The notes under the pieces are model-generated. The model made no database searches, was not told where the DNA came from, and worked only from the letters and a program-made list of their open reading frames with translations. From UHGV virus genome UHGV-0038492: a DNA stretch of 64,000 nucleotides. The stretch is one strand, 5' to 3'. The translations under genes and the position numbers were made by a program. This document shows, one piece after another, positions 3-53,774 of the stretch. Position 1 is the stretch's first letter, and each line of letters opens with the position of its first letter. The stretch comes from a virus.

Positions 3-317
3 GTAAGTTATTTCAATGCATCAACAGAGTCCATGGTACTAGGAGTATCCACACACGCAATCAGTCAAACTGAAACGGAATCTAAACGTAACAGCAAAGG
101 CGGTAAAACGGTTAACCTTAACGACCGTACGAAGCACGCTTCTGCATCGCACCTCGAATGCGGTAACGTTTATTACATTCCGAAGTCGTCCCCATTCAAA
201 TGGGGTGTCCTTAACCCGTATATGAAAACTAACCGTCAATTAGTGATGGTTCGTAATCCAAAACTTGACGAGTTAATCCAAGCAACCGAAGAAGACATTG
301 CGAAGATTGGCCGTTAA
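3..317 (+). CDS. hypothetical protein, 3' fragment (ORF open to window start)
   Basis: Frame is open from base 3 to the stop at 315-317; no RBS before the internal ATG at 33, so the gene probably starts upstream of the window. Confidence 0.4.
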   Translation, partial: VSYFNASTESMVLGVSTHAISQTETESKRNSKGGKTVNLNDRTKHASASHLECGNVYYIPKSSPFKWGVLNPYMKTNRQLVMVRNPKLDELIQATEEDIAKIGR

Positions 318-356: not shown

Positions 357-1967
357 ATGGCAAGCTACAGCGAAACTCGTGAATTTATCTTGAAAGTTTT
401 TATGGCTAAACAGGATCAGCTGTTGAACTATCTCGTCGACGCGATGAATGCGAAAGGGATAAAAGAAGATCCGTTTGTTAATGCAGCGTGTATTGTGGGT
501 AACTGGTATCTGCAAAACCGTCGTCCTAGCGACCAGACTAACGTTGCGGTTATCGAAACCTTTAAGGCAACGCTCTATAGCCGTCTGTTAGGTTTAGGTC
601 TGACCCCGTTGCAGCCGGACATTCATAGCGCGTTAGAGAAAGCGTTTGTGCTGGCGAATCAGCTTGCAGAAGAAGCTCGTCGTGCCGGGCAGGGTGGCTT
701 CGGTGTACGTACTGAACCGGTTAACTTCGGTATTCAGAATTCGCAAAATGCGCAACCAACTGCACCGATTCAGGGTTCTTCTGTACCAATGGCCAGCTAT
801 ACTCCGGCCGGTGTAACAGTGCAACCTGTACAACCCGCTCCGGTATTCGGTGGTACTCAGCAACCTCAACCTCAACCGCAAACACAGCCTGCTATTATTC
901 AGCCGACTGTTCCGCAGGAAGTGATGAACAAAAGCAAGCCTGTGGATATGAATAAGGAAACGATGGATGATATCATTCAACGTGCTAACCGTCCTCACCA
1001 TGACATTTTGCGGGTAGAAATTGTGGAAGACTATTTAGATCACGAGCTGAAAGAAAAGATTCAGCAAAACGTTGTTTCGCCGAAAGAAGCCAACACACGC
1101 GTCAAGAATTCTGTGTATGCAGAACATCGTGACTGGGGTGATAAGGTTAGTGAACTGGTTGAAGATAACGACAAACAATATTGCTCGTATGACGATGCGG
1201 GTATCATGGTGAAAGTCGAAAGCGAATATCGTCTGTATCCGATGGCACAGACTGAAACTTCTGCGGTGTATCTCCAGGAGTTTTATAGTTCGGTTCGCCA
1301 GATTATCGACGATCTCGATACCGTACGTGATATTGACGATATTGAAAAGCTGATGGAGCGTGTTTCTAATGACGTCTTCAGACTGCGTGATCTTGCACAA
1401 CGTTTGTTAATGTACTTCCTCACCAAATCTGATGAGAATGAAACGTATCGTAGCGAATGTTCAGCGTTTACTCGTCGTTTCATTGCAACATTAACTGTGC
1501 TGGTTCACAACGCCATCTCCGTGGCATCTGCTTATGGTAAAGACGTTCCGGGTACGAAATTCGTACAGTTGGAATGCTGCCTGGATGACATGACCTACTT
1601 TAAAGAGACGGTGTACGGTCGTACCATCGGTGAAAACGGCGTGAGCAAGTCTGCGGATTATTTCCGTGAAATGTTCCTGCTGATCGCGCGTTCTCTGCGT
1701 AAGCTGCACATTCGACTGACCTGCGATAATAAAGCCATTGAACTGTCTCAGGTAACGTACACGATTTCTCTGCAAGCAGATTATCAATCCGCTAACGATC
1801 GCCACATCGTGGAAATCTCATCATTTGGTAATAGCTTCGAACCGATTGTTTCAATCTACGAAGTCATTAACCAGAAAGCACCAGAAGCGTTCATTAAACT
1901 TAAGACCCCGTCTCACGTTTATTCGCTACTGAGCACAGGTGACGTTACTGCACCGGTTCGTTATTAA
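357..1967 (+). CDS. hypothetical protein with central Pro/Gln-rich linker
   Basis: 536-aa ORF; AGGAG RBS about 10 nt upstream of ATG; low-complexity linker PQPQPQTQP between two ordered halves; no catalytic motif recognised. Confidence 0.8.
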   Translation: MASYSETREFILKVFMAKQDQLLNYLVDAMNAKGIKEDPFVNAACIVGNWYLQNRRPSDQTNVAVIETFKATLYSRLLGLGLTPLQPDIHSALEKAFVLANQLAEEARRAGQGGFGVRTEPVNFGIQNSQNAQPTAPIQGSSVPMASYTPAGVTVQPVQPAPVFGGTQQPQPQPQTQPAIIQPTVPQEVMNKSKPVDMNKETMDDIIQRANRPHHDILRVEIVEDYLDHELKEKIQQNVVSPKEANTRVKNSVYAEHRDWGDKVSELVEDNDKQYCSYDDAGIMVKVESEYRLYPMAQTETSAVYLQEFYSSVRQIIDDLDTVRDIDDIEKLMERVSNDVFRLRDLAQRLLMYFLTKSDENETYRSECSAFTRRFIATLTVLVHNAISVASAYGKDVPGTKFVQLECCLDDMTYFKETVYGRTIGENGVSKSADYFREMFLLIARSLRKLHIRLTCDNKAIELSQVTYTISLQADYQSANDRHIVEISSFGNSFEPIVSIYEVINQKAPEAFIKLKTPSHVYSLLSTGDVTAPVRY

Positions 1968-2011
1968 GTTTGGATTGGGGGTGGAAACATCCCCATTTTT
2001 AAGGAGTGCGT

Positions 2012-2260
2012 ATGGCCGCTTATGTTGATTACAGTAAAGCCAAGATAGAGCTAAACGTAATTGATACCGTAGAGCGTTTAAAGCAACAACTTTCTTTGGA
2101 GTTATATCAACTTCGCGTCCGTATTCACGAGCGTGAACAACTTATTGAGAAACGTCCATTATTTATCGACGAGAAGCAGGTAAAACTTATCACTGCGGAG
2201 TTAGAAGTTATGGCCGCAGAGAAACTGTTACTCGAAGAACGTATCGCTGCTATTGGTTAA
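2012..2260 (+). CDS. small coiled-coil protein
   Basis: AAGGAG RBS 5 nt upstream of ATG at 2012 (track start 2006 is a GTG inside the RBS); heptad-like Leu/Glu-rich sequence; followed by hairpin terminator. Confidence 0.6.
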   Translation: MAAYVDYSKAKIELNVIDTVERLKQQLSLELYQLRVRIHEREQLIEKRPLFIDEKQVKLITAELEVMAAEKLLLEERIAAIG

Positions 2261-2270
2261 TCACCACACA

Positions 2271-2302
2271 AGGAGAGCCTAGGCTCTCCTCCTTTCTTTT
2301 TT
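2271..2302 (+). terminator. intrinsic terminator
   Basis: AGGAGAGCCTAGGCTCTCCT stem-loop followed by a T-run. Confidence 0.7.
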
Positions 2303-2344
2303 ATTCCCAAATTTATTATAGTACCCACTCATTAGGGAATTAAG

Positions 2345-2644
2345 ATGATTAAGTATATTGCAATCAATGTAAACTACGAACGTAACCCACGTTTTCGTTT
2401 TGAGTTACCTGAAACCAAAGCAACCATGGAGTTTAATCGTTACCTGTTAGAACATTCAAACACCAAAATCAATCACGGTAGATACTGGCTTATCTACTAT
2501 AATGCCCGTAATGAGTTACTGAAAGCCGTCAAGAAATCAGGTCAGTCAGAACTGTTAGCGAAACTGATGGCGTTTGATGGCGATCCTTTAGCAATAGGAA
2601 TTATGTTAGACCTTGCTATCAATAAAGACGAAATAGCATGGTGA
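2345..2644 (+). CDS. hypothetical protein
   Basis: 99-aa ORF with ATG and weak GGGA RBS; followed by bidirectional terminator. Confidence 0.55.
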   Translation: MIKYIAINVNYERNPRFRFELPETKATMEFNRYLLEHSNTKINHGRYWLIYYNARNELLKAVKKSGQSELLAKLMAFDGDPLAIGIMLDLAINKDEIAW

Positions 2645-2657
2645 AAAAAAGAAAGCT

Positions 2658-2704
2658 ACTCCGACCCCAGAAGGGTCGGAGTAAGCTCGAATTATTTTTT
2701 TTTT
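2658..2704. terminator. bidirectional terminator between convergent genes
   Basis: CTCCGACCC-CAGAA-GGGTCGGAG hairpin flanked by an A-run upstream and T11 downstream. Confidence 0.7.
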
Positions 2705-2709
2705 GCTAT

Positions 2710-5379
2710 TTAGAGAGTTTCATCGGTGTTGTCGTCTGTACCGGTATCCGTCTCGTCCGTGCCCTCAGTTGAAACTTCTTCTTCCGTTGTCGTATCGGTT
2801 TCCGTCGTTTCATCATCGGTCATGTCCAAGTCTTCATCACCGCCCAGATCGTCGCCACCAAAGTCGTTGCCCCCGCCGAAGTTATTGGCGTCTTCAGGAT
2901 TCAAATCAGCCGCTTTTGCTATCGTCTGAACTTTACCGGTCGCACGTTTTGCTAACTGAATCAGCGTCTTCGATGCTGCTGCAATTTCATCAGAAATCAT
3001 CTTGACGTTTTCACCACGTTTATCTTCATCGTAGATCAAATCAAACAGATCGGTTTCGATGCCCTGATTACGTAGCCAGTTGCGCGCGTAGAAGGTCTTA
3101 ACCATCGTCTTGAGGTCATCAGGTGACATTTCAATACCTTCGTTCTGAAGCATATTAGCAATGTCGTCCGTGACCACCAGATCTGCAAGTTTCTCGATAA
3201 ATTCATAGCGTTTATCGAAGAGATCAGCTTGAGATGCTGTTGCAGAAGTATCAGGCGGCGGCAAGGTGACCTTCATACCGTTTATAAACTTCGCCATATA
3301 CTCTGACGTTTGTTTTGTCATCTCTTCGCTAGTTACATTCGGATTCTGCTCACGGATATACTCAACGATAATACGGATGAGTTCTGCTTGCAGTTTCGGT
3401 GAAGCTTGCAGACTGTTTGTAACGTAGCGCGTAAGCGGGGTTGAGAGGATTTCCTGTTTCTTCACAATCTGTTGAGTAACCAACAGCGATTTAGAATAAA
3501 TCTGAGAAGCAAACTCCAGGTTCTCCGGGGTAAGTACAAGGTCAGGATCAACACACGCGATGTGACATGTACGGCGTAACAGGTTCTCGTCAATTTGTTG
3601 ATCAGGAACTTTATACTCCGGCGTGGTATCAGACACAGATACTTTGTGGCTGGCGTAGTAATCGTTACCCGTTACGTTAAAGGCAATCCCCGCGTTAGCC
3701 CCCATTGACCAGGCGTCGTTGATATCACCCCACATCGGCAGGCGACGATTGTAGGAATTAAGGATATCTGATTTAACTTGGTCAACAGTTTTTTGACCGT
3801 TTGCATCATCTGGTGACAGCTCAATGTCGTACTGCATGTGACGTGCCGAGTTCAGTACAGATGAGTTCATCGTTGCGAACAGCAGCGCCATCCTGACAGT
3901 AGAGATAATAAAGGAGCGCTCAGTAATAGAAACCCCGATACCGTCTTCGTTAAAGTCCGTTGCAAAATAGCACAAGTTATTAACCGGAATGTAAACCACC
4001 TGAGTATGACGTTTTGCGAGATGCCGCGCTAACAGAATACGACCGAATGTTTCGGTAATATTCATGCTGATTTCTGCGCCACCTAGTGCCTGACTTAATG
4101 CGCGTGCAAATTCGTTTTCAGCGATTTCACCACAACGTGTACTTAAACGGTTGGCGATTTCCGGGGTAATACGAGAAGTGTTCCCTAAGCCCAGATTAGA
4201 ACGGTTAATGATGCTGTCCGTCATCCCGTCGTTATTCAGGTAGTTCATAAAGTTCGCATCGCCGTACAGCGAGGAGCGAGCATTGATGAAGTTACCCATG
4301 TCATCTACGATGGTCAGATAACCGATAGGGTTACGAACGTCATCGCCAATTACCAGTGGCAGCGTTGACTCTGCGGGCAGTAAACGTTCGATGTATTCGA
4401 TTTTGTTATTCTCATCCATTGAGATAATAGGAATATCACCGTACGTTTGTGTTTTCGGTGTTGACTTATACGCCTCGTTTAAATCACCCAAGTTAATGAA
4501 CCCTTTTTCAGCAGCGTCACGCTGACGGTCATCGAAAGATTGATTAGGGTCGAACGGACTGCCACCGTTTGGTGTAGACGGCTTTTCATATGCGGCTTGC
4601 TCTAATTGCCCGTACAATCCCGTACGTGCGTTCTCATGCGCAATACGACGATACAAATCCGGCAGCATGGTAATGCGCGGGTTATCGGTAATCGTGATTT
4701 CCATCTGGAATTTATCCGAGAACATCGAATCGTGCTTACCGAAATCGATTTTCAATGTTTGTGGACCAGTAACGGCTCCGCGTAAACGGTTGAGAATTGA
4801 TTCTACACCAACTCGCTGCCCTTCTTTCGGCGCATTAATAGGCCCGAGGATACCAAGCTGTTGTTCGAAGAACGCCGTTTGAGAACGACGAATAGATTCA
4901 GTAGCGACCTTTGTATTCAGACCGAATAATTGGTCGAAGCCGGTATCCGAGATTATCATCACTGGACTTGCGCCTTTGGTTTTTAACGCATCGTAAATCC
5001 ACTGATATAATTTCTTAGGTAGCTGACGAATGTTATCGTGATAATCACGGGTCGGTGTCAGTAGCGCGTTACGCAGATCAATGGGGATGTCCGCGAAGTT
5101 GTCGTAAATCAACGTCGTGTTGATTAAGTCTTTTGTTGATAGCAGGCTCGAAGTTGCAATAGTAACGATTGTTTCGAGTTCAGGTAACGCATCAAAGATA
5201 CGTTCCGCATTTTTGATAGTACGAATACGTGAACTCGCAATTGCCGTGAGTTCTTGACGTGTTGGCGTAGAACCACCCTCGCTACGCGTACCGCGTTGTT
5301 GCTGAGGTGCTGGGCCCGTAGTTTTACGAAGAATTGCAGCTACGGCGGGGTCGCCCGTTAATTTACTAATATCGTCCAT
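2710..5379 (-). CDS. large hypothetical protein with strongly acidic C-terminal tail (possible virion protein)
   Basis: 889-aa ORF; last ~55 residues almost entirely D/E/T/G; no P-loop seen; a virion/portal-like role is speculation only. Confidence 0.8.
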   Translation of the reverse strand: MDDISKLTGDPAVAAILRKTTGPAPQQQRGTRSEGGSTPTRQELTAIASSRIRTIKNAERIFDALPELETIVTIATSSLLSTKDLINTTLIYDNFADIPIDLRNALLTPTRDYHDNIRQLPKKLYQWIYDALKTKGASPVMIISDTGFDQLFGLNTKVATESIRRSQTAFFEQQLGILGPINAPKEGQRVGVESILNRLRGAVTGPQTLKIDFGKHDSMFSDKFQMEITITDNPRITMLPDLYRRIAHENARTGLYGQLEQAAYEKPSTPNGGSPFDPNQSFDDRQRDAAEKGFINLGDLNEAYKSTPKTQTYGDIPIISMDENNKIEYIERLLPAESTLPLVIGDDVRNPIGYLTIVDDMGNFINARSSLYGDANFMNYLNNDGMTDSIINRSNLGLGNTSRITPEIANRLSTRCGEIAENEFARALSQALGGAEISMNITETFGRILLARHLAKRHTQVVYIPVNNLCYFATDFNEDGIGVSITERSFIISTVRMALLFATMNSSVLNSARHMQYDIELSPDDANGQKTVDQVKSDILNSYNRRLPMWGDINDAWSMGANAGIAFNVTGNDYYASHKVSVSDTTPEYKVPDQQIDENLLRRTCHIACVDPDLVLTPENLEFASQIYSKSLLVTQQIVKKQEILSTPLTRYVTNSLQASPKLQAELIRIIVEYIREQNPNVTSEEMTKQTSEYMAKFINGMKVTLPPPDTSATASQADLFDKRYEFIEKLADLVVTDDIANMLQNEGIEMSPDDLKTMVKTFYARNWLRNQGIETDLFDLIYDEDKRGENVKMISDEIAAASKTLIQLAKRATGKVQTIAKAADLNPEDANNFGGGNDFGGDDLGGDEDLDMTDDETTETDTTTEEEVSTEGTDETDTGTDDNTDETL

Positions 5380-5390
5380 TGGGGTCTCCG

Positions 5391-7574
5391 ATGCAGAGAT
5401 TTAACATATTTCGTGAACAGAACATCGCGTTGGCGAAATCACTGATTATTAAATCAGAATCAATCGCACAACAGATGAATCTGGCAATAACCGAGAACGG
5501 CGGTTTCGTTTCCGATAACCGAAGTACGTGGCGATACTACCTGCATTTAGCAGGACAACGTCACGAATGGGATAAGCCCATTTACATAACGTCGCTCGAC
5601 ACGCAAGAGCAGATAGAATTAACGACAGCCAACCTGTCCCGTCATAAAAAGACCTCAAACGTATTTCGTTCGAACGGCGAGTACATTGAGGAGCTGATCA
5701 GAACGTATCCTGACTACGCGATTTATATCCGGGGTGTGTTTAATCCGGTGGATATAAACTACGCCATCCGTGTGGCTGACTGCTCTATCCTCTATTACGA
5801 CAGTTCATTAGTGGAGTCGCAAGAGACGTCGCTGATGTCGAGATTGGAAGACAGAATAAGGGCAGCTCACGTTCGCTATATGTCAGAAGGGTGGAAAGTT
5901 CACAACGATGCGTTCGTGTTAGCATTCTACTGTATTCTGTATCCGCAGCTACCCGGCATTATCGGCTATATCCGTTCTTCTTTACAGCATACCACGGAAA
6001 CACATTCTTTTTACGTGACCGAGTTCTTAGCATCACACCAAGAACTTCACGAGTTTATGCCTTATCTGACCCAGAAACAGAAATTCATTCTGTATCGGAA
6101 TATTCGTTACTGGGAGCGTAATTCAGGGAAAGAGGAGATTTTCGACTGGCAGATTGATGCGCTACTGACAGGTTGGGGGATGCCTGCGGTCGGGTATAAT
6201 GTTGCGCAGCAGATACACGAACCGAAGGATGATGACGATTCCACGTTAACACCGTTACCGATTGGTTATCAGCAATCGCTTAACTATACGGAAAAGGATT
6301 CTGGTCGAGACCTTGACATTGTAACGACGACGGACATTATCCAGAAGGAAGTCGCGTTAGCGTACAATAACCCGGCGTACGAACCGGAGTATCAAGAAGA
6401 CTTAGATACCCGTTTAAGTTTAACGCAATACCCTAACCTAAAAACCAAACTCATTGAAGTTACAGCAGTCGATCCAGAAGCGATTGAGCGCTTCGAGTAT
6501 CTGCATAACCTCTTTAACGAATGGGTACATCTCGTCGCGAAAGGGAAATACAACATTTACCACGAGATTCTTAACCCAACAAACGGGGATACCTTAAAGC
6601 TTAGCTCAAAAGAGTTATTGGCGCTGTTCTTGTACGCGGCGTATAAAGGGTATTCTGACGTTGCGTTAGAAGAGATTCCTGTGTTCAACGTATTCGGGGT
6701 GTTAATCAAACGCTGGGTTCCATTCGATGAAATGGAACAACATTTAATCCCGAGCTGGGAAAACCGTTTCGATGCGTTGATTAACTATTATACCGATACG
6801 CACACAGAAGTCGTCGGAACGATTCTTAGTGCTGATGAACTTTACGACACGGTTAATGAAATCATTACCCAGAAACGCCGTCGTTGGCGTTATAGCCAAA
6901 ACCGTCGGAAGATTCCTGACCGCGCTGCGGGCTTGATGCTGTTTAACTACCATTATCGTGATTATCGTTGCGATTTAAAACTGAACTACCGTAACTACGA
7001 TGAGTTCTTTAAAACGTTTGGGTTAGACTATACGTTGGTTTCGGCGGAGACGTGGCAAGACATTGCTATTGATGCGTTTAACACCGCAACTAACCTGGAA
7101 ACCCGCGCAACGATTTCACAGTCTGAGATTCAGCGTGCGATGGTACGACTGATGACGAAGCTGTCATCCTACACCGTACATTTTGCTGCACGAATGGGGT
7201 CAGATTCTTACGACGTTATGGACCCGCTCTGTCCTATCTTAGGGGATATCCCTATGAGTGGGGAGGGGACAATTACAATTATTGAACCCCTCTTAGGCGT
7301 ACAGCAAGTTACGCGTCACCAGTATATGTCCACCGACACTGTGTTACCGGCAGCGCCTGTTATTAAAGAACTGTCGATGCCACAGCACATCAAACTCAGG
7401 ATGAACATTTACATGGGTATCCGAGTGAAAGTAACACAGCAGGTTGTGGTGGATATTAACGAGCCGACTACCGGGGTTGTTAAAGTGAAATCTTCGCTTG
7501 ACGATTGGACGTTAAACGAACAGGTGAAAATTAACGATCTGGACGGCTTCACGCTTGACCAGCTACCTAAGTGA
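5391..7574 (+). CDS. hypothetical protein
   Basis: 727-aa ORF from ATG 5391 (track start 5379 is a TTG); diverges from the 889-aa gene with no intergenic space; no Walker motif seen. Confidence 0.75.
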   Translation: MQRFNIFREQNIALAKSLIIKSESIAQQMNLAITENGGFVSDNRSTWRYYLHLAGQRHEWDKPIYITSLDTQEQIELTTANLSRHKKTSNVFRSNGEYIEELIRTYPDYAIYIRGVFNPVDINYAIRVADCSILYYDSSLVESQETSLMSRLEDRIRAAHVRYMSEGWKVHNDAFVLAFYCILYPQLPGIIGYIRSSLQHTTETHSFYVTEFLASHQELHEFMPYLTQKQKFILYRNIRYWERNSGKEEIFDWQIDALLTGWGMPAVGYNVAQQIHEPKDDDDSTLTPLPIGYQQSLNYTEKDSGRDLDIVTTTDIIQKEVALAYNNPAYEPEYQEDLDTRLSLTQYPNLKTKLIEVTAVDPEAIERFEYLHNLFNEWVHLVAKGKYNIYHEILNPTNGDTLKLSSKELLALFLYAAYKGYSDVALEEIPVFNVFGVLIKRWVPFDEMEQHLIPSWENRFDALINYYTDTHTEVVGTILSADELYDTVNEIITQKRRRWRYSQNRRKIPDRAAGLMLFNYHYRDYRCDLKLNYRNYDEFFKTFGLDYTLVSAETWQDIAIDAFNTATNLETRATISQSEIQRAMVRLMTKLSSYTVHFAARMGSDSYDVMDPLCPILGDIPMSGEGTITIIEPLLGVQQVTRHQYMSTDTVLPAAPVIKELSMPQHIKLRMNIYMGIRVKVTQQVVVDINEPTTGVVKVKSSLDDWTLNEQVKINDLDGFTLDQLPK

Positions 7575-7581
7575 GAAAACC

Positions 7582-8109
7582 ATGGCATATCGCGTCGACT
7601 TAACGAAAACTCCGAAACAAATTCTGGTAGATCGTATTAACTACGTTTTCGGGGTATCCTATACCACTGATAACATCGATTTTAACGATAAAGGTGTGCA
7701 ACCACTGACGAAAGACGAAGCCCGTCGTTACGGACTGGAATCGAAAGTGGCCGCTGACTTTAAAAACGGTGTTACAGGGAACCAGGAATTCATCTTAACC
7801 CGTGTTGACCTGGCAACGTTCTTAGCTGACGAACCGGTTACGGTACCGAAAGGCGAAGTAACCAGCAGCCAAGAACTGGCAGACTATATCGTTGCCCAGA
7901 CCGGTATTGATTTGACCCAAGACGACATTATGATCGAGCCTATCAGTGAGGAACTCGATTCTTATGATGTTCGCTTAGTCCCGAATCACTTATCTTTTAA
8001 AGGAACGATTCCGGTCGTATTTACTGACCCCACACCACGCACGTTGGCGTCTCTCGTGACGAAACTTGCGCTGGACGGGTTCCGCCCTGGAGAATTAATC
8101 AATGTCTAA
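7582..8109 (+). CDS. hypothetical protein, distant member of the fibre-associated small-protein family
   Basis: ATG at 7582; contains the motif ELADYIVAQTGIDLTQDDI resembling the xNLxPxDL motif of ORFs at 27860, 38024, 47326 and 48188. Confidence 0.6.
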   Translation: MAYRVDLTKTPKQILVDRINYVFGVSYTTDNIDFNDKGVQPLTKDEARRYGLESKVAADFKNGVTGNQEFILTRVDLATFLADEPVTVPKGEVTSSQELADYIVAQTGIDLTQDDIMIEPISEELDSYDVRLVPNHLSFKGTIPVVFTDPTPRTLASLVTKLALDGFRPGELINV

Positions 8110-8989
8110 TGTCAAAGTTTACGACGGTAAACTCTCGACGGTAACACTTAATGCGATGCGTCTGGCTACCGCATTAATTACCGGTGCCGATGTGCAATAC
8201 CCACAGAAGTCCACACTGAATGAGTTTTATAAACTCATGCAAACCCCAGTGCCGGACGGTAAAGCACGTCCCCATTTGCAGTACATGGCGATTGGTAACC
8301 GTGGCCATATGGTCGACACATCAGACGTTGTTGCTGATGTTGTTCCTGTAGCTAAAGAACCTATCGCGTCCGGGATGTTTTCACGCGTTCCGTTTGTCCT
8401 GCGTACTAAAGACAACGATTTGTCTGATGAACAGCGTAAGAACTACGCTTTCCGTACTCTGGAAACCATCAACAAACGTGAGTATTGGGCGTACTACTTA
8501 AAACGCATTGACATGCGTGCAGTAAAAACTACCGACTACGACATTAAGCGTGAGAACGGTGTTGAAACTGTAGAAGACTTTGTCTATACGGATACTGAAC
8601 TGAACCCGGTACCGAAAGTGTTGCCGGACTACGATTACGATGATGACGGTACCGTTGCAATTCCTGACGGCCGTTATGTGGAATCAGGTGCAGACCTGGT
8701 TATTCCGTGGACGGACTTTGACGTTCAGGAGTACATGAACGTGACCAGCATTATGCGCGGTAGCCCTCGTAGTTCGATTATCTCTGAACTGGCACTGTGC
8801 TCTGGCTTAGACCAGGTAACGTCCGGTGACTCTGCTACAGGTTCGAAGTTCAGCTACACTGAAGCTATCGGTGTACAAGCCCTGTATTACATTTCGATGT
8901 TTACTAACCTGGCGCAGACGAACGATAAACTGTCACTGACAATCCGTATCGGTCAACCTGCACCGTTCTTCTTAGGGACAGCGAATTAA
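8102..8989 (+). CDS. hypothetical protein
   Basis: 295-aa ORF, GGAGAA RBS, start overlaps upstream stop. Confidence 0.7.
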   Translation: MSNVKVYDGKLSTVTLNAMRLATALITGADVQYPQKSTLNEFYKLMQTPVPDGKARPHLQYMAIGNRGHMVDTSDVVADVVPVAKEPIASGMFSRVPFVLRTKDNDLSDEQRKNYAFRTLETINKREYWAYYLKRIDMRAVKTTDYDIKRENGVETVEDFVYTDTELNPVPKVLPDYDYDDDGTVAIPDGRYVESGADLVIPWTDFDVQEYMNVTSIMRGSPRSSIISELALCSGLDQVTSGDSATGSKFSYTEAIGVQALYYISMFTNLAQTNDKLSLTIRIGQPAPFFLGTAN

Positions 8990-9633
8990 TGTTGATTCCT
9001 GAGCCGAGACTTCCCGATAAAATGGTCAGGATCGCGGCGATAGACCCCGGTACGAGCCATCTCGGGATGGCGGTGCTGGATTGGGAATATGGCAGCGACC
9101 AAGCCGAAGTGGTGTGGGCTGATACCATGCACGTATTAGACCCAACACATCCAAGTGCGTTTGCAGAGTGTGTCGGTAAACGCGACGATCGCTTAGTAAA
9201 ACTCGAAGCGTGCTACCGTGAGTTTCTTCGGATTGCGCGTCCGACGTTTGTTGCAACAGAAACGCCGTTTATGCGGCGGGCAAAACTCTCCGCGTATGAG
9301 TCTGGTGTAGAGTTACAGCTGATGTTAAGACGGGCGTTATGGGACGTGTTTCCAGAGAAAGTGTTACACGGGTTCAATCCGATTATTGTAAAATCATTCG
9401 TCGGTGTGGAAGCGAAAGGAACGGACAAAACAGATATGTTTCGTGCCGTAACGAAGTTGTATCGCGACCACGCGTTGTTTGACATTACAACGTTGGATGA
9501 GCACAGTATCGATGCCGTGGCGGTGGGGAATATCTTTGTCAGGGTAAACCTGTTAAACTTGAATAGTCTCCTACCGCCAAAACAAAAGTCTGCTAAGACA
9601 GCAAAACGGCGGAGAAGACGTCGGAGGAAATAG
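8989..9633 (+). CDS. RuvC/RNase-H-fold protein (putative Holliday-junction resolvase) with poly-Arg C-terminal tail
   Basis: N-terminal RIAAIDPGTSHLGMAVLD resembles the first catalytic strand of RuvC-family resolvases; C-terminus KRRRRRRRK. Confidence 0.5.
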   Translation: MLIPEPRLPDKMVRIAAIDPGTSHLGMAVLDWEYGSDQAEVVWADTMHVLDPTHPSAFAECVGKRDDRLVKLEACYREFLRIARPTFVATETPFMRRAKLSAYESGVELQLMLRRALWDVFPEKVLHGFNPIIVKSFVGVEAKGTDKTDMFRAVTKLYRDHALFDITTLDEHSIDAVAVGNIFVRVNLLNLNSLLPPKQKSAKTAKRRRRRRRK

Positions 9634-9635
9634 CG

Positions 9636-10214
9636 ATGTCGCAACCAACACAAGACGTGTCAGCCGCAATTCTTGACATTCTTATCCAAGCAGGGAACAG
9701 AAAGTTAAGTAAAGAGCAGTCCGAAGAACTGTCTAAGATTCTCAAAGACAACTTCGGTGATGATGTCTCTGTAGACGTAACGCGGTCGGGTACAAAGATT
9801 CTGTCGGAGCTACGCCCAACGCTTCTTGAGAACATTGGAAAGATGGCGGAAAACTTTCAGCAGCAAGCCACAAATGCTGTAGAGAGTTTAGGTGACGAAG
9901 TAAGCAAAGAAACGATGTTGACACTGTGGCCGAAACTTGCCGGTGCACAGAAGTTCATTATTGTTCTGCTTGCACTCGCCACTGTGGTCGTGACAGGCTT
10001 CTTAGCGTACGACACGCATCAGAACTATCCAACAGACAGTATGGAAGTGTTGTTTGTATCCTTACTTCCGCTGTTCGGACTGGTAGTATTTGCAACGTGG
10101 CCGATTAAAACGTTGGCTTACAAGTCGTTGGAGATTGCTACCAAAGTTGTCGAGAAGAAACTTGAGAAATCAGGTCAGGTCGTCGCGAAGACGGAAACAA
10201 AGACAACGAAATAA
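9636..10214 (+). CDS. membrane protein (two predicted TM helices)
   Basis: GGAGG RBS; hydrophobic segments FIIVLLALATVVVTGFLAY and LFVSLLPLFGLVVFATW; followed by terminator. Confidence 0.65.
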   Translation: MSQPTQDVSAAILDILIQAGNRKLSKEQSEELSKILKDNFGDDVSVDVTRSGTKILSELRPTLLENIGKMAENFQQQATNAVESLGDEVSKETMLTLWPKLAGAQKFIIVLLALATVVVTGFLAYDTHQNYPTDSMEVLFVSLLPLFGLVVFATWPIKTLAYKSLEIATKVVEKKLEKSGQVVAKTETKTTK

Positions 10215-10220
10215 AACCAA

Positions 10221-10255
10221 CCTCTACCTTCGGGTAGAGGTTTTCTTCTTTTTAT
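10221..10255 (+). terminator. intrinsic terminator (UUCG tetraloop)
   Basis: CCTCTACC-TTCG-GGTAGAGG followed by T-rich tract. Confidence 0.75.
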
Positions 10256-17674: not shown

Positions 17675-17715
17675 CTCAGATATATATTACCTTAGTGAGA
17701 TTACACAGTAATCTC
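17671..17715 (+). promoter_or_regulatory. promoter-like motif TTTTCTCAGATATATATTACCTTAG followed by hairpin (copy 1)
   Basis: Near-identical 20-nt AT-rich element recurs at 39209 and 43638; hairpin GAGATTA-CACAG-TAATCTC follows; sits just after a terminator and ~55 nt before the HTH gene. Confidence 0.55.
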
Positions 17716-31856: not shown

Positions 31857-31880
31857 TAACCCGCTTATAAAAAAAATATT

Positions 31881-31937: not shown

Positions 31938-34900
31938 ATGGCAAAAGCGGTAAAGAAAATACGATTACATAATCTTAGACCATATACCGGTGATATCGGT
32001 GAAGGCGTTTTACTTTTCTCCAAGGATGAGAAAGATTATAAGTTACCAGTCCGTGAGATCATTGCGGATATTGACACCGTACGTAATGCGGTGGCTGAAG
32101 CACAGACAGCAGCAACACAATCACAAGAAGCTGCAACTCAGGCTACACAAGCAAAGAATTTAGCAGAAACAGCAAAACAACAAACTGACACCGTTGCAGC
32201 TACGGTTGCTCAACAAGCGCAAACTGTAACCGAAAAAGCAACTGAAGTCGGTACAAAACACACTGAAGTGTTAGCCGCGAAAACTGCGGTAGACGAAGTA
32301 TCAGTGTCGGTGAATGAGAAGGCTCAAGCTGTCGCCGCAAGCGAACAATCGGTGACGGCTGCTGCGGCTGATGTAACTAAGAAAGCAGAAACGGTTGCGC
32401 AACAGGCCGGACAAGTTCAACAGACGGCTACCAGCGTCGCAAATACTGCGGCATCAGTTGAGGCCAGTAAAGGTGCAGTGGAGAAAATTGCTGCGCAGGT
32501 CACGAAAGATAAAGAAACGTCGGAGGGCGCGGCTACCCGCTCAGAAGCGGCCGCACAACGTGCTGAGAAAATCGCCGCCCAAGGCTTAGTTGACGCTAGT
32601 ACGATCGGTAAAGGCATCGTTAAACTTAACGATACCCTGACTAGTGAATCCGTGACGGAGGCTGCCACGCCGTCCACGGTTAAACAGCTGAACGACGAAT
32701 TACAGTTAAAAGCCAATAAACATTCGCCGAATTTTACGGGTAAACCGACATCCCCAAAACCGCCGAAGGACTCGAATGACACGAGCATCTCCACAACGTC
32801 CTGGGTGCGTGACGCGATTGCTGAATTGGTTGGTTCCTCACCCGAGACGTTAAATACCTTAGCGGAATTAGCAGAGGCGTTAGGTAATGACCCTAACTTC
32901 GCAACAACGATCACTGAGGAGCTTGCGCAGAAGCAACCTATCAGCCCATTACTCACCGCAATCGCTGCGGTTACAAGTGCAGCAAACAAACTCCTGTATT
33001 TCACGGGCTCTAATAAAGTCGAGTTAACCGATTTTACAGAAACTGCCAGATCCTTGTTAGCGAAAGGGTCAACTGCGGATATTATTAACTTCCTGGGTTT
33101 GAAACCCACCGTTGATAAAGCAAACGGCGCACTACAGAAAAACTCTAACGGTGCTGATATCCCAAATAAAGAAACTTTTGCTCGCAACATCGGCCTATCT
33201 CCTGATACCTATCTGCGTTTCCGTGGCAAAATGCCTGTAGATGCTGATATTAACACATTTGCTCCAGATGCTAATTACACAGGAACGTGGTCTAAGTCGA
33301 CATCAACCAATGCGTCGATGGCAAAACACTTCCCAGAAGACGGTGCAGTCGGTTATCTGGAAGTGTATAAAGCGGGCAACTACAGTGGCGCGCAACGTTT
33401 TACCTGTCGTAATGGTAACGTGTACAACCGTATGTTGTCAGCCGCGTGGAACGGAACTAATGGCCCGTGGTCGCCGTGGAGAATGGTAACTACCGGTGTA
33501 CGCCCGTTATCTACATCGATTGATCTGAACTCTTTAGGCGGTGCCGAACACATGGGTAACTGGCGTAACTCGTCCAGTTCGTTAGCGGTGTTTGACAGAC
33601 ATTATCCTGAAGAGGGCGGTGGCGCTCAAGGTGTTCTGGAAGTCATGGAAGGTGGTCTTTACGGACGGTTGCAGCGATACACTACGCGTCGTGGCACAAT
33701 GTATGTCCGTGGTTTGACTGCAACATGGGATTCATCAAACCCACAATGGGAAGATTGGATTCAGGTTGGTTATCAGACTGACGGTGCTTTCTTTAAAGCC
33801 AATTTTAACGATCTCGTTAAACCGGGTCGTTTCAGTGTCACTGGTCAGGCAACTAACGGCCCACTTACCGGTTCTTCTGGCGAAACCATATTAGGCGTTT
33901 GTGAAGTTACCTTACGCTTAGACGGTACAGGGGTCGAACAGAATTATACCACATACGGCACGGGTGCAGAAACTAAAGGTCGTAAATTCCAACGTATCCG
34001 TACGGGTAACATTTGGAGCGATTGGCGTGAGGTTTTCACATCCTATTCGCTTCCGTTGGCCTTAGGTATCGGTGGGGTTGCTGCCAAGGTCGATCCGTTA
34101 GACTGGCAAACCTTCGACTTCGTTCCTGGCCAGATGATAAGCACACCGTTGAATACCATGAAAAACATTCCTGCGGGAATGGATTGGGGTGTTATTGACG
34201 GTAACTTGGTCACTATTCTTGTAGGGGCGTCGGAGGACACCGGTACTGGTCGGAGTATGTTGGTCTGGCGTGGTACAGTGTCTACTGCTAACTATCGCTT
34301 CTTTGCAGTACGTATCGCCGGTGAGAAGGGTAGCCGTACGATTACGCCACGACAGATGCCTGTGTTAAATGCAGCACACACTTGGGCCGAGAAACAAACG
34401 TTCTCTAAAGGCTTAGCGGGTGAATTGACAGGTAATGCGTCAACGGCAACGAAACTGAAAACAGCCCGTTTAATCGGTGGTGTAAGTTTCGACGGCACTA
34501 GCGACATTCCACTCCCTGGTGTTAACCAGCAAGGTAATCAAAACACCACTGGGAACGCGGGAACCGCAACCAAATTACAAACGGCTCGAAACATCAACGG
34601 TGTGAAATTCGATGGCTCTAGAGACATCAATATCAACACCTTGGTAGGACGTGGACGTGTTACTGCACTGACGGGATCAAACAAAGGTACGCCTGGTATT
34701 CAGATGTACGAAGTTTACAATAACGGTTATCCGACCGCTTATGGTAACTTATTGCATTTGGGTGGTGCTACTGCGCTAGGCGAAGGCGAGTTGTTAATCG
34801 GATGGTCGGGGACGAGTGGTGCGCACGCGCCAGTTTATATTCGTAGCCGACGTGATACGGCTGACGCGCCGTGGTCAGATTGGGCACAAGTTTATACTGC

Positions 34901-36497
34901 CCGTGACAGCATTCCTGGCGTAAATGCCACAGGTAATCAAGATACTACCGGCAATGCCGCTACCGCGACGAAACTGAAAACCGCTCGCAGAATTGGAGGC
35001 GTTACCTTTGACGGTACTGGGGATATCAATTTACCGGGGGTTAACCAAGCCGGTAACCAGAATACGTCAGGTAATGCTGCGACAGCGACTAAACTTCAGA
35101 CTGCGCGAAATATAGGCGGTGTGGCTTTTGATGGTACTAAAGACATCAGTTTACCTGGTGTAAACCAGACGGGTAATCAGTCGACTACCGGAAACGCAGC
35201 CACGGCCACAAAGTTGCAGACAGCTCGTACCATTAACGGTATCCCATTTGACGGCACTAGAAATATATCGTTAGGGCCTGCCGATATAGGTTGCCCGGCA
35301 TCACCTAGTGGTTGGTTAGAAACTGGCGCTGATGGCGCTGCAATAACTACAGCACAGCTAGTGACGTTATTGAAAAATAACGGCGCGTTTACCACAAGAT
35401 CGTGGGTTGCTCGCTGCGCATGGGCTTATGCCGCTAGTGCAAGTATACCTCATAGCGAGACGGGTTGTGGTGTTATTCCATTAGCTGGGGCTGTTATAGA
35501 AGTGATTAGTAACGGCAACAGCACAAACAACTACACGATCCGTATAACGACCGCCACAACGACGAGCGTCTCCGGCGCACTCACTAATGCGGAGTTTATC
35601 TACGTATTTAACGGCGATACTTACTCACCAGGTTGGCGTCGCGTGTACAATACGAGAAACAAGCCAACTGCTGCGGATGTTGGGGCGTTGCCATTATCTG
35701 GCGGTCAGTTGAATGGCGCGTTGGGTATTGGAACCACTAATGCTTTAGGTGGGAACTCCATAGTTTTAGGGGATAATGACACCGGCCTTAAGCAGAACGG
35801 GGATGGCGTTCTAGATGTTTACGCCAATAATGCTCATGTTTTACGCTTTACGAGTGGGGCTGTTCAAAGCAATAAACCTCTCAACGTTACCGGAGATATA
35901 AGAACCAATACTTGGGTTTATGCAAATAGATATTCTATTAACAGCAACTCAGGTTCTTGGATTAGCATGAGAGACCATAACGTTATTTTTGGTCTTAATC
36001 CGGTAGGAACTAGTTCTGCTCAGGCATTGTTAAGACAAGACCATGCTGATAGGAAATTTTTTGTTGGTGGTTTAGGTAACTATCAATTCGGCTTTTACAT
36101 GATAAACAACTCACGTACTGATAATGGCACCGATGCTAATGCTTATTTGCAAAACGACGGTACTTGGGTTTGTGGTGGGAACGGTAACTTTAACGACGTT
36201 TATATACGATCTGACGCCCGGCTGAAAAGTAATTTCTCTCCAATAACTAATGCATTGGAGAAGGTAAAGGAATTGTCAGGTTTAATATACGACAAAAAGG
36301 AGAACTTTAAATCCACTAATGTTCATCGTGAGGCTGGTGTTGTAGCGCAGACCTTACAAAAAGTGTTACCTGAAGCAGTTTCTACTTATAAAGACGCTAA
36401 TGGTGAGGACGTTTTGACGGTCTCTAACTCTGCACAAATAGCTCTACTTATTGAAGCAATAAAGGAGTTGGCGGAGATAATTGAGACCAAGTTATAA
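31938..36497 (+). CDS. long tail fibre protein with C-terminal intramolecular chaperone (peptidase S74-like) domain
   Basis: 1519 aa; conserved N-terminal anchor; Ala/Gln/Thr-rich helical stretch; four knob-like repeats ending W-x-x-W; five copies of the TGNAATATKLQTAR...FDG fibre repeat; C-terminal SDARLKSN motif of endosialidase/T5-fibre-type self-cleaving chaperones. Confidence 0.9.
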   Translation: MAKAVKKIRLHNLRPYTGDIGEGVLLFSKDEKDYKLPVREIIADIDTVRNAVAEAQTAATQSQEAATQATQAKNLAETAKQQTDTVAATVAQQAQTVTEKATEVGTKHTEVLAAKTAVDEVSVSVNEKAQAVAASEQSVTAAAADVTKKAETVAQQAGQVQQTATSVANTAASVEASKGAVEKIAAQVTKDKETSEGAATRSEAAAQRAEKIAAQGLVDASTIGKGIVKLNDTLTSESVTEAATPSTVKQLNDELQLKANKHSPNFTGKPTSPKPPKDSNDTSISTTSWVRDAIAELVGSSPETLNTLAELAEALGNDPNFATTITEELAQKQPISPLLTAIAAVTSAANKLLYFTGSNKVELTDFTETARSLLAKGSTADIINFLGLKPTVDKANGALQKNSNGADIPNKETFARNIGLSPDTYLRFRGKMPVDADINTFAPDANYTGTWSKSTSTNASMAKHFPEDGAVGYLEVYKAGNYSGAQRFTCRNGNVYNRMLSAAWNGTNGPWSPWRMVTTGVRPLSTSIDLNSLGGAEHMGNWRNSSSSLAVFDRHYPEEGGGAQGVLEVMEGGLYGRLQRYTTRRGTMYVRGLTATWDSSNPQWEDWIQVGYQTDGAFFKANFNDLVKPGRFSVTGQATNGPLTGSSGETILGVCEVTLRLDGTGVEQNYTTYGTGAETKGRKFQRIRTGNIWSDWREVFTSYSLPLALGIGGVAAKVDPLDWQTFDFVPGQMISTPLNTMKNIPAGMDWGVIDGNLVTILVGASEDTGTGRSMLVWRGTVSTANYRFFAVRIAGEKGSRTITPRQMPVLNAAHTWAEKQTFSKGLAGELTGNASTATKLKTARLIGGVSFDGTSDIPLPGVNQQGNQNTTGNAGTATKLQTARNINGVKFDGSRDININTLVGRGRVTALTGSNKGTPGIQMYEVYNNGYPTAYGNLLHLGGATALGEGELLIGWSGTSGAHAPVYIRSRRDTADAPWSDWAQVYTARDSIPGVNATGNQDTTGNAATATKLKTARRIGGVTFDGTGDINLPGVNQAGNQNTSGNAATATKLQTARNIGGVAFDGTKDISLPGVNQTGNQSTTGNAATATKLQTARTINGIPFDGTRNISLGPADIGCPASPSGWLETGADGAAITTAQLVTLLKNNGAFTTRSWVARCAWAYAASASIPHSETGCGVIPLAGAVIEVISNGNSTNNYTIRITTATTTSVSGALTNAEFIYVFNGDTYSPGWRRVYNTRNKPTAADVGALPLSGGQLNGALGIGTTNALGGNSIVLGDNDTGLKQNGDGVLDVYANNAHVLRFTSGAVQSNKPLNVTGDIRTNTWVYANRYSINSNSGSWISMRDHNVIFGLNPVGTSSAQALLRQDHADRKFFVGGLGNYQFGFYMINNSRTDNGTDANAYLQNDGTWVCGGNGNFNDVYIRSDARLKSNFSPITNALEKVKELSGLIYDKKENFKSTNVHREAGVVAQTLQKVLPEAVSTYKDANGEDVLTVSNSAQIALLIEAIKELAEIIETKL
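34428..35272 (+). repeat. in-frame tandem tail-fibre repeats (about 38 aa each), five copies interrupted by one knob-like domain
   Basis: Protein-level repeats GNQNTTGNAGTATKLQTARNINGVKFDGSRDI and variants; nucleotide copies are diverged. Confidence 0.8.
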
Positions 36498-39210: not shown

Positions 39211-39258
39211 TTCTCAGATATATATTACCTAGAGGAGAGCGAAATTTACATTCGCTCT
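39209..39258 (+). promoter_or_regulatory. promoter-like motif TTTTCTCAGATATATATTACCTAG followed by hairpin (copy 2)
   Basis: Identical core to copy 1; hairpin AGAGCGAA...TTCGCTCT; sits after a terminator and ~50 nt before ORF 39286. Confidence 0.55.
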
Positions 39259-43637: not shown

Positions 43638-43682
43638 AATTTCAGATATATATTACCTAGGTGAGAGTTCAGCTACTCTCAC
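43638..43682 (+). promoter_or_regulatory. promoter-like motif ATTTCAGATATATATTACCTAG followed by hairpin (copy 3)
   Basis: Identical 18-nt core; hairpin GTGAGAG...CTCTCAC; ~50 nt before ORF 43712. Confidence 0.55.
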
Positions 43683-50679: not shown

Positions 50680-50718
50680 ATAAACCTACCCTCCTGCTTA
50701 GCAGGAGGGTATTTATTA
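50680..50718. terminator. bidirectional terminator between convergent genes
   Basis: ACCCTCCTGC-TTA-GCAGGAGGGT flanked by A-rich and T-rich tracts. Confidence 0.7.
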
Positions 50719-51195
50719 TTCTACCGGGTGCAGCATAGTGCCGGTATCTGGAATGCTGCCTTCGTGACATCTGAAGAACGTTACACCTTTACCTTCACCT
50801 GTTTTGTAGTTGATGGTAGAATACGCAAACGTTGGGGTTTTCGACAGTAACCCGTTTACACGGTAATAGCGCTCACCGGTAACAACGTTTAAGTTACCGT
50901 CCACTTTACCTAACAGGTCTTTATAAAGTTGCGGAGATTCAATTTTACCTTCGTCCCATGTAGCGACCCAATTCGCTCCTGTATCCATGACTAACACCGA
51001 AAGGGGCATCAGTTTTAGGCTAGACGGTACCGGTTTAAAATCAGCGAATTCTTGAGAAGCACCTGTACAGGTGTAAATGACCATATCGTGTTGGTCAACA
51101 GGTACGGTGGAGAACTGACCTTCTGCGTTCGGCTGAATAGCACAACTTGCCAATGTCATTACAAAAGCAACGACCACGAGAATGCGTTTTAGCAT
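50716..51195 (-). CDS. lipoprotein (signal peptide with lipobox LASC)
   Basis: AAGGATGAG RBS before ATG at 51195; MLKRILVVVAFVMTLASC; lone minus-strand gene between two plus-strand blocks with terminators on both sides. Confidence 0.65.
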   Translation of the reverse strand: MLKRILVVVAFVMTLASCAIQPNAEGQFSTVPVDQHDMVIYTCTGASQEFADFKPVPSSLKLMPLSVLVMDTGANWVATWDEGKIESPQLYKDLLGKVDGNLNVVTGERYYRVNGLLSKTPTFAYSTINYKTGEGKGVTFFRCHEGSIPDTGTMLHPVE

Positions 51196-51883: not shown

Positions 51884-51904
51884 GGGGGGGGGGTGACCTC
51901 CCCC
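51884..51904 (+). other. G10...C5 homopolymer hairpin between the GELDGFTA paralogs
   Basis: ATCGGGGGGGGGG TGACCT CCCCCGAT about 40 nt before ATG 51943. Confidence 0.6.
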
Positions 51905-53226: not shown

Positions 53227-53774
53227 TCATCGTCTCCTTTAATCAATCCTAATTCGATTAACAGTTCAAAATCGATATGACGGAATCTTGTATCAAAATC
53301 CGATTCCCAATCGATGCGGATACCCTGGCACTCTTCTGATGTTAGCTCGGGAAAAATTACGGTATTAAATTTCTCACGCTCATCGTAAAACCCATCAATC
53401 GGTGAGTTCGGGTTACGCGTTGCGAAAATAGTAATACCAGGGAAAGATAATGCTAACACAGTGATAGATTCTGCGCTGGGCTCACTTAAAGAGCGGCGTA
53501 GAAACGCAATTTTGTGGCGTGGGAAGTCCAATACGCGTTCTTCAAACCCTGGATTACGTTTTTCGATTTCCGCTACCGACAGGTCAGTAAGTTCGGTGCA
53601 ATACATTGGGATGATTACAGTCACGCCGTGGCGAATCAGTAAACGTTTTACGTCATCGGTAAAATCTTCGCCGTTAATCATCACGTAACAACCGAACAGC
53701 TTACTGTTTTCCAGAAACTTATCCAGAAGTCGAATTCTACGCTTCGTAATATTGTTGATCAGAATTGGTTTCAT
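53202..53774 (-). CDS. hypothetical protein co-operonic with radical-SAM enzymes
   Basis: 190-aa ORF overlapping both neighbours. Confidence 0.6.
   Translation of the reverse strand: MKPILINNITKRRIRLLDKFLENSKLFGCYVMINGEDFTDDVKRLLIRHGVTVIIPMYCTELTDLSVAEIEKRNPGFEERVLDFPRHKIAFLRRSLSEPSAESITVLALSFPGITIFATRNPNSPIDGFYDEREKFNTVIFPELTSEECQGIRIDWESDFDTRFRHIDFELLIELGLIKGDDECLLLVKA

Follow-up and report, generated by a model that had tools for sequence, protein, structure and literature searches.

The closest described system is that of the jumbo phage phiKZ (NC_004629), in which PHIKZ128 (128154..130328, minus strand) and PHIKZ129 (130364..133054, plus strand) lie head to head. The structural atlas of phiKZ identifies gp129 as the dodecameric portal and gp128 as a baseplate-wedge protein whose N-terminal region joins a three-helix bundle (PMC13250141); the homologue of the portal gp129 in phage SPN3US is gp81 (PMC5105663). 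The late promoters of phiKZ consist of the tetranucleotide TATG with +1 at the G, all four bases being needed in vitro (PMC4666361, PMC7598289), and TATG is bound by gp123, a beta-like subunit of the non-virion RNA polymerase (nvRNAP) (PMC12809450). Start sites and transcription units of phiKZ were taken from the ONT-cappable-seq tables of Putzeys et al. (bioRxiv 10.1101/2023.10.13.562163). In these tables start site P070 (130258, plus strand, late promoter class, upstream sequence ending ...TTTTATGA / ...AAATTTTATGA) is located 70 nucleotides (nt) inside gp128 and 106 nt upstream of the gp129 ATG, and the unit TU100, which runs from P070 to T060 (133099), contains PHIKZ129 alone and is thus monocistronic. 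The portal gene is followed by a bidirectional terminator, T059 and T060, and elsewhere in the same genome the starts P072 (134420, plus strand) and P073 (134428, minus strand) overlap divergently by 9 nt (bioRxiv 10.1101/2023.10.13.562163). Here, the homologous locus was analysed in UHGV virus genome UHGV-0038492, of which a stretch of 64,000 nt (the window) was available and in which the genes of a portal protein of 889 amino acids (aa) and of a baseplate-wedge protein of 727 aa diverge from start codons only 11 nt apart. With a probability of about 0.8, this locus is the conserved divergent portal/wedge pair of phiKZ-like jumbo phages, transcribed from compact promoters that lie inside the partner genes.

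The window belongs to an uncultivated phiKZ-like jumbo phage. It is ~74% identical in nucleotide sequence to the Erwinia phages phiEaH2 and Asesino (Erskinevirus) and to SPN3US-like phages of Salmonella, and its wedge-gene locus is identical to that of IMGVR_UViG_3300045988_078609 (224.8 kb). The portal protein was matched by phrog_3004 over residues 2-886 (1017 bits), by the PHIKZ129 chain (PDB 9xpe_M, E-value 1.3e-40) and, over residues 10-667, by two further portal chains in the PDB. The wedge protein was matched by phrog_3222 over residues 1-725 (E-value 2.9e-282) and by the PHIKZ128 chain over residues 4-634 (PDB 9xqs_C, E-value 2.9e-81). At the left edge, positions 3..317 carry the C-terminus of the phiEaH2 gp002 family (104 residues inside the window; phrog_2943 C-terminal match, E-value 3e-35), and full-length phiEaH2 gp002 matches phiKZ gp123 (PDB 7ogp_E, E-value 8e-16); on the strength of these matches, the lineage encodes a gp123-like nvRNAP subunit, the C-terminal 104 residues being the part within the window.

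The plus strand reads CAT tggggtctccg ATG at 5377-5393. The minus-strand open reading frame (ORF), 2710..5379, has its ATG at 5379, and the plus-strand frame is open from a TTG at 5379, with the ATG at 5391 opening the 727-aa ORF (5391..7574) and Met29 at 5475 as its next in-frame ATG; the coordinates of the original prediction (889 aa from 5379, 727 aa from 5391, next ATG at 5475) were confirmed from the sequence and the ORF list. Starts further upstream are excluded because in-frame stops bound both ORFs, a TAA at 5367-5369 in the case of the plus-strand gene and, in the case of the minus-strand gene, a TAA at 5403-5401 after which the ATG at 5379 is the first start codon. Starts further downstream are contradicted because the N-termini are conserved, the profiles and solved chains align near residue 1 and each ATG is preceded, at a distance of 6 nt, by a Shine-Dalgarno sequence. 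The N-termini MDDISKLT... and MQRFNIF... are kept in nine relatives, and PHROG profiles align from residues 1-2 in both proteins. With solved chains of the phiKZ family, alignments to the wedge protein begin at its residues 4-5; those to the portal begin at residue 10 for two of three matched chains, and the best stretch to phiKZ gp129 is 333-856. The plus-strand Shine-Dalgarno sequence is GGGG (5381-5384), the minus-strand one GGAG (5389..5386). The annotated start codons of both genes are genuine.

With one Shine-Dalgarno sequence per strand, the spacer is a double ribosome-binding cassette and nothing else. All 11 nt are identical in the window's own group, phiEaH2, Asesino and the SPN3US-like phages, four lineages at ~74% overall nucleotide identity; the segment GTCTCC, the complement of the portal GGAGAC, is unchanged in six lineages, and in Phobos the spacer is a perfect GGAGttgtCTCC. 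The wedge ATG is also enclosed by a near-palindrome on both strands (TCTCCG-ATG-CAGAGA, 5386-5399). Folding of four candidate 5' untranslated region (UTR) segments gave no significant structure (Z-scores -0.69 to +0.38) and only small hairpins over the ribosome-binding and AUG regions, namely a possible 6-bp hairpin (UCUCUG/CGGAGA) over the portal Shine-Dalgarno sequence in the portal 5' UTR and a 6-bp CAUUGG/CCGAUG stem overlapping the Shine-Dalgarno sequence and AUG in the wedge mRNA, neither of them significant against shuffled sequences.

Conservation was assessed in genomes sampled evenly down a ranking of 290 records with a gp128 homologue. The head-to-head portal/wedge pair was present in 20/20 other genomes inspected, which span the phiKZ-like clade and include phiKZ itself; the real gaps measure 11-74 bp, and the pair is a family-wide feature beyond what chance would give. 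The annotated gaps are 11 bp in phiEaH2, Asesino, SEGD1 and RSL2, 12 bp in Kwan, 15 bp in ChrisDB, Phobos and SNUABM_38, 22 bp in EL, 25 bp in SPLA10, 26 bp in Aeromonas PS2, 28 bp in N1M2, 32 bp in Desertfox, 35 bp in phiKZ and KEN19, 64 bp in KpLz-2_45 and 74 bp in pTD1. Two wider annotated gaps come from starts called too far downstream: PhiPA3 gp148 (annotated gap 254 bp, with the real CAT and ATG ~36-37 bp apart) and JM-2012 TSMG0043 (annotated gap 172 bp, real gap 13 bp). The false gaps lie at 3231-3486 and 3278-3451 of the respective retrieved loci, and in SEGD1 (KU726251) the portal is annotated as two coding sequences (749-3489 of the retrieved locus), with the ORF broken after 177 codons. 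The layout had been described as atypical, which is correct for genes read from sigma-70 promoters but not for the phiKZ-like family, where it is the typical state.

Since the spacer holds only the two opposed Shine-Dalgarno sequences, the earlier deduction that any promoters must lie inside the partner gene, or that the genes are fed by read-through, was supported. Each mRNA must start inside the partner ORF, because each Shine-Dalgarno sequence must lie in its own transcript: the portal transcript is required to start at or beyond ~5390, in the wedge ORF, and the wedge transcript at or before ~5380, in the portal ORF. With both starts inside the partner ORFs, the 5' ends are therefore complementary and overlap by at least ~10 nt. 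The back-to-back layout would be workable because the promoters of phage-encoded multisubunit RNA polymerases are very short and can sit inside a neighbouring gene, so that no intergenic space for -35 and -10 elements would be required. The suggestion of compact promoter elements is borne out as known biology of the clade, given the phiKZ portal start at a 4-bp TATG inside gp128, and minimal phage RNA polymerase promoters in coding sequence are thus already documented for the homologous portal gene. In the window, the portal gene would form a monocistronic unit, from a promoter within the 5' codons of the wedge gene to the hairpin terminator at 2656-2684, and the wedge gene would head a block of five genes ending at the terminator at 10219-10242, with an AT-rich box in the portal gene (5358-5372) as its most likely promoter. 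Such interleaving of signals with essential coding sequence may be what has kept the pair together.

A minus-strand TATG that precedes the portal ATG by 26 nt is the putative portal start (Table 1). It falls in wedge codons 5-6 (AAC ATA) and relies on the rare ATA codon; at codon 6 this rare isoleucine codon (ATA, 10% of Ile codons) is retained in 4/6 lineages, and at codon 3 the rare arginine codons AGA/AGG are retained in 9/9 sequences (AGR accounts for 13% of Arg codons). The TATG at -26 is common to the window's group, phiEaH2 and Asesino, and TATG is found at -111 in ChrisDB and at -107 in phiKZ instead. Across the window TATG/CATA is the third most under-represented tetranucleotide (observed/expected 0.60), after CTAG (0.44) and GATC (0.47), and its density is 1.04/kb on the antisense strand of the plus-gene block vs 2.46/kb on the sense strand, a scarcity consistent with avoidance of a promoter-like signal. 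Between -70 and -20 of genes, 19 copies were observed vs ~6.6 expected on a both-strand background.

The putative wedge promoter box, 19-33 nt upstream of the wedge ATG, is antisense within portal codons 3-8, and the 20-nt stretch around it (5357-5376) is 75% A+T vs 55% overall. The box coincides with synonymously constrained portal codons; over portal codons 1-10 synonymous identity is 0.74 vs a gene mean of 0.47 (rank 9/957 windows). The hexamer AATTTA is the second most enriched upstream of genes (9/75 genes vs 1.5 expected, p ~2e-5), and 4/6 copies of AATTTAYTA lie no more than 90 nt upstream of plus-strand genes. A TTACC/TTAACC-like box also recurs 45-60 nt upstream of the gp128-like ATG, within the first portal codons, in phiKZ-like phages, PhiPA3, EL, SPLA10, Desertfox and N1M2; the box is similar to the middle-promoter element AAAATTACC of phiKZ and may simply stem from a conserved portal Gly codon.

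Several observations weigh against transcription from promoters in the partner genes and against these two candidates in particular. At -26 the TATG is absent from 4/6 lineages, namely the SPN3US-like phages (which have AATG), ChrisDB, Kwan and Phobos, and the probability of finding it there by chance, only ~6%, is entered on the same side. In a late-promoter matrix built from 26 mapped phiKZ promoters only AT at -7/-6 is informative beyond TATG, and the extended motif ATNNTATG, of which 64 kb hold 3 copies, is not matched at 5405, where the site reads GAAATATG. Measured against the sense-strand background, the excess of TATG upstream of genes is marginal (p = 0.058), and the 200 nt ahead of the wedge gene contain no TATG. 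Synonymous constraint is not significant over wedge codons 1-10 (rank 132/726), and constraint by start codons can equally reflect translation initiation and not promoters. Among 40-nt windows of the two-gene region the junction ranks only 4th in conservation in the three closest lineages; an ultraconserved junction was rejected on this rank and on its position outside the top six across six lineages. A literature search found no transcriptome for the window phage, SPN3US-like or Erskinevirus phages, and both start sites in the window are putative. Finally, PHIKZ128 and PHIKZ127 have no start site or unit in the phiKZ tables, though a 3' end (T058) follows gp126.

The last of these points also bears on the explanation that survives best beside promoters in the partner genes, according to which the wedge gene lacks a promoter of its own and is reached by read-through from the plus-strand genes at 357..2644, passing first the 2656-2684 hairpin and then, in antisense direction, the 2.7-kb portal gene. 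For the portal gene the read-through option of the original prediction is implausible because the nearest convincing minus-strand gene upstream (50716..51195) is ~45 kb away; for the wedge gene it is still live, if unlikely. In addition to the missing phiKZ start site and the minus-strand T058, termination at the hairpin may be leaky, as the plus-strand T-run begins ~8 nt past the stem, and gp128 is a low-copy virion protein. Against this, the corresponding upstream unit of phiKZ, TU103, ends at T059, with the longest reads extending only to 132946, and read-through would produce 2.7 kb of antisense portal RNA. Furthermore, the junction is conserved across the phiKZ and SPN3US-like groups, whose upstream neighbours are not the same, and the first portal codons are under strong synonymous constraint and carry the upstream-enriched AT-rich motif.

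Transcription by the host sigma-70 RNA polymerase from ordinary -35/-10 promoters embedded in the partner genes is very improbable. A scan of 2300-8200 gave 8 matches vs 10.4 expected, hence no enrichment; two plus-strand matches do lie inside the portal gene (4983-5011, 10/12 with TG, and 5136-5163), but the nearest plus-strand match is 380 nt upstream, the minus strand has none within 5380-5700, and on the correct strand no pair of hexamers with 16-18 nt spacing was found at 200 nt or less from either start. Independence from the host polymerase has been demonstrated for phiKZ only and not for SPN3US-like phages; the lineage nevertheless encodes the gp123 homologue, and early-promoter-like boxes in the window fit the consensus of the phiKZ virion RNA polymerase. 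These boxes are three exact copies of ATATATTACCT (17682-17692, 39220-39230 and 43648-43658, plus strand) within ..cAGATATATATTACCTaG..GAG, each directly after a hairpin and T-run and ~60 nt before a small gene; their core matches mapped phiKZ early promoters such as ..GATATATATTAC.., and they are likely early promoters of the window phage.

The least probable explanation, a mis-called start that would place the wedge start at Met29 (5475) or the portal start far downstream and leave a conventional intergenic region, draws on the inability of ORF lists by themselves to settle start codons and on the mature SPN3US portal beginning at residue 255, and is largely refuted, as that N-terminus is a prohead-protease cleavage product, the wedge protein has an amino-acid identity of 0.87 over codons 1-10, the phiKZ gp128 N-terminus makes the wedge three-helix bundle, and the alignments from residues 1-10 and the two Shine-Dalgarno sequences fit the annotated starts. 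In SPN3US, cleavages at ATE-161 and AQE-254 remove an N-terminal propeptide of 254 residues from the portal, and peptides of this propeptide are still detected by mass spectrometry (PMC5694885, PMC10052503). The motifs ATE-161 and AHE-249 of the window portal (residues 159-161 and 247-249) align with ATE-161 and AQE-254 of SPN3US gp81, which predicts removal of a propeptide of ~249 residues by the prohead protease. The N-terminal peptides that the original prediction had named as its refutation are therefore a flawed test, because N-terminal proteomics of virions would wrongly suggest a portal start ~250 residues downstream once the propeptide is cleaved, and the N-terminus of the virion portal is uninformative on the start codon.

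Features of the locus are listed in Table 1. Over more than 45 kb in which the genes are otherwise on the plus strand, the portal gene is the one clear minus-strand gene; in phiEaH2 it is likewise the only clear reversed gene over at least 45-50 kb, and the first 50 kb of that genome hold just this strand switch. The terminator hairpin between the portal gene and its convergent neighbour contains an 11-nt, 100% complementary inverted repeat in a 13-bp stem, with the T-run tail CTTTCTTTTT on the minus strand. The four tightly packed genes that follow the wedge gene occur in the same order in phiEaH2, Asesino, ChrisDB and Kwan. Location of the portal on an invertible DNA segment was considered and rejected, as no inverted repeats were found at the boundaries and only one orientation was seen among the relatives examined.

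Table 1. Coordinates of the portal/wedge locus and of its candidate signals in the window
Feature	Position	Strand	Remarks
Hairpin terminator	2656..2684	both	between convergent gene 2345..2644 (plus) and portal gene (minus)
Portal protein gene, 889 aa	2710..5379	minus	homologue of phiKZ gp129 and SPN3US gp81
Candidate wedge promoter box TTAATTTACTAATAT	5358..5372	plus	AT-rich, 19-33 nt upstream of ATG 5391; putative, weakly supported
Spacer tGGGGTCTCCg	5380..5390	both	two opposed ribosome-binding sites (Shine-Dalgarno)
Baseplate-wedge protein gene, 727 aa	5391..7574	plus	homologue of phiKZ gp128; heads five-gene plus-strand block
Candidate portal start TATG	5405..5408	minus	G at 5405, 26 nt upstream of portal ATG; putative
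Virion protein gene, DUF7941	7582..8109	plus	
DUF7208 gene	8102..8989	plus	
RuvC-like gene	8989..9633	plus	
Fourth gene downstream of wedge gene	9636..10214	plus	
Hairpin and T-run terminator	10219..10242	plus	10-bp stem, tail TTCTTCTTTT; closes wedge-headed block

Further features of the window were recorded outside the pair. A 536-aa protein (357-1967, plus strand, phrog_8185) is encoded between the nvRNAP beta-like gene and the portal gene and is the positional counterpart of SPN3US gp78, an essential protein with a proposed regulatory role whose knock-out abolishes virion protein production (PMC5105663). A tail-fibre protein of 1519 aa (31938-36497, plus strand) was matched in separate segments by 61 PHROG families and is apparently a mosaic fibre; a G10/C-rich hairpin near 31880 stands ahead of its gene and has a similar G10 counterpart near 51885. 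A radical SAM domain protein (53737-55059, phrog_1802, E-value 8e-116) is encoded in the block of minus-strand genes at the window's right end.

The locus adds no new kind of element, and its arrangement is what phiKZ-like jumbo phages normally show and is deeply conserved among them. If transcribed as proposed, it is a clean natural case of expression signals written wholly within coding sequence and illustrates how the minimal promoters of jumbo-phage RNA polymerases dispense with intergenic space. In practical terms, the head-to-head pair is a dependable synteny marker for phiKZ-like phages and reveals mis-called starts in deposited genomes, as in the two cases above, and changes made to the first ~25 codons of one gene may disable expression of the other. 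It is conceivable, though distinctly unlikely, that the forced overlap of the 5' ends is a conserved regulatory module and not simple compaction, with each promoter and 5' UTR set in the essential N-terminal codons of the partner and the portal and wedge mRNAs mutually antisense at their ribosome-binding sites. Were this so, mutual interference with initiation could adjust head-vertex and baseplate components to each other in timing or dose, and the pair would be genetically locked together in a family otherwise known for rampant inversions.

Among known systems, the bacterial overlapping divergent (face-to-face) promoters share the geometry that makes the 5' UTRs mutually complementary; here, in contrast, the polymerase would be phage-encoded, the signals would be in coding sequence and a regulatory role is hypothetical. 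The late promoters of the phiKZ nvRNAP are resembled by the TATG on the correct strand upstream of the portal gene, by the gp123-family gene at the left edge and by the under-representation of TATG, whereas the window site departs from them in the preference for ATNNTATG and its TATG is not conserved in sister genera, which leaves it a candidate. With the phiKZ gp128/gp129 locus the window shares homologous genes, their head-to-head orientation and a single reversed portal gene followed by a hairpin terminator common to it and a convergent neighbour, the 13-bp hairpin resembling the bidirectional T059/T060 that adjoins gp129; the phiKZ portal promoter sits antisense within the 5' part of the wedge coding sequence. 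The two differ in the gap (35 bp in phiKZ vs 11 bp), in their upstream neighbours and in the position of the TATG, which in phiKZ falls at wedge codon 24 and precedes the portal ATG by 106-107 nt, while the homologous codons in the window (LIIK, 5442-5453) contain none and the only nearby TATG is the one at -26. The nearest counterparts are SPN3US gp81 with its neighbour, phiEaH2 gp005/gp006 and Asesino gp97/gp98: despite an overall nucleotide identity of ~74%, portals of 907-913 aa vs 889 aa in the window and, in the SPN3US-like phages, AATG in place of TATG, these loci have the identical 11-nt spacer with near-identical flanks, the same downstream gene order and matching cleavage motifs in the portal propeptide.

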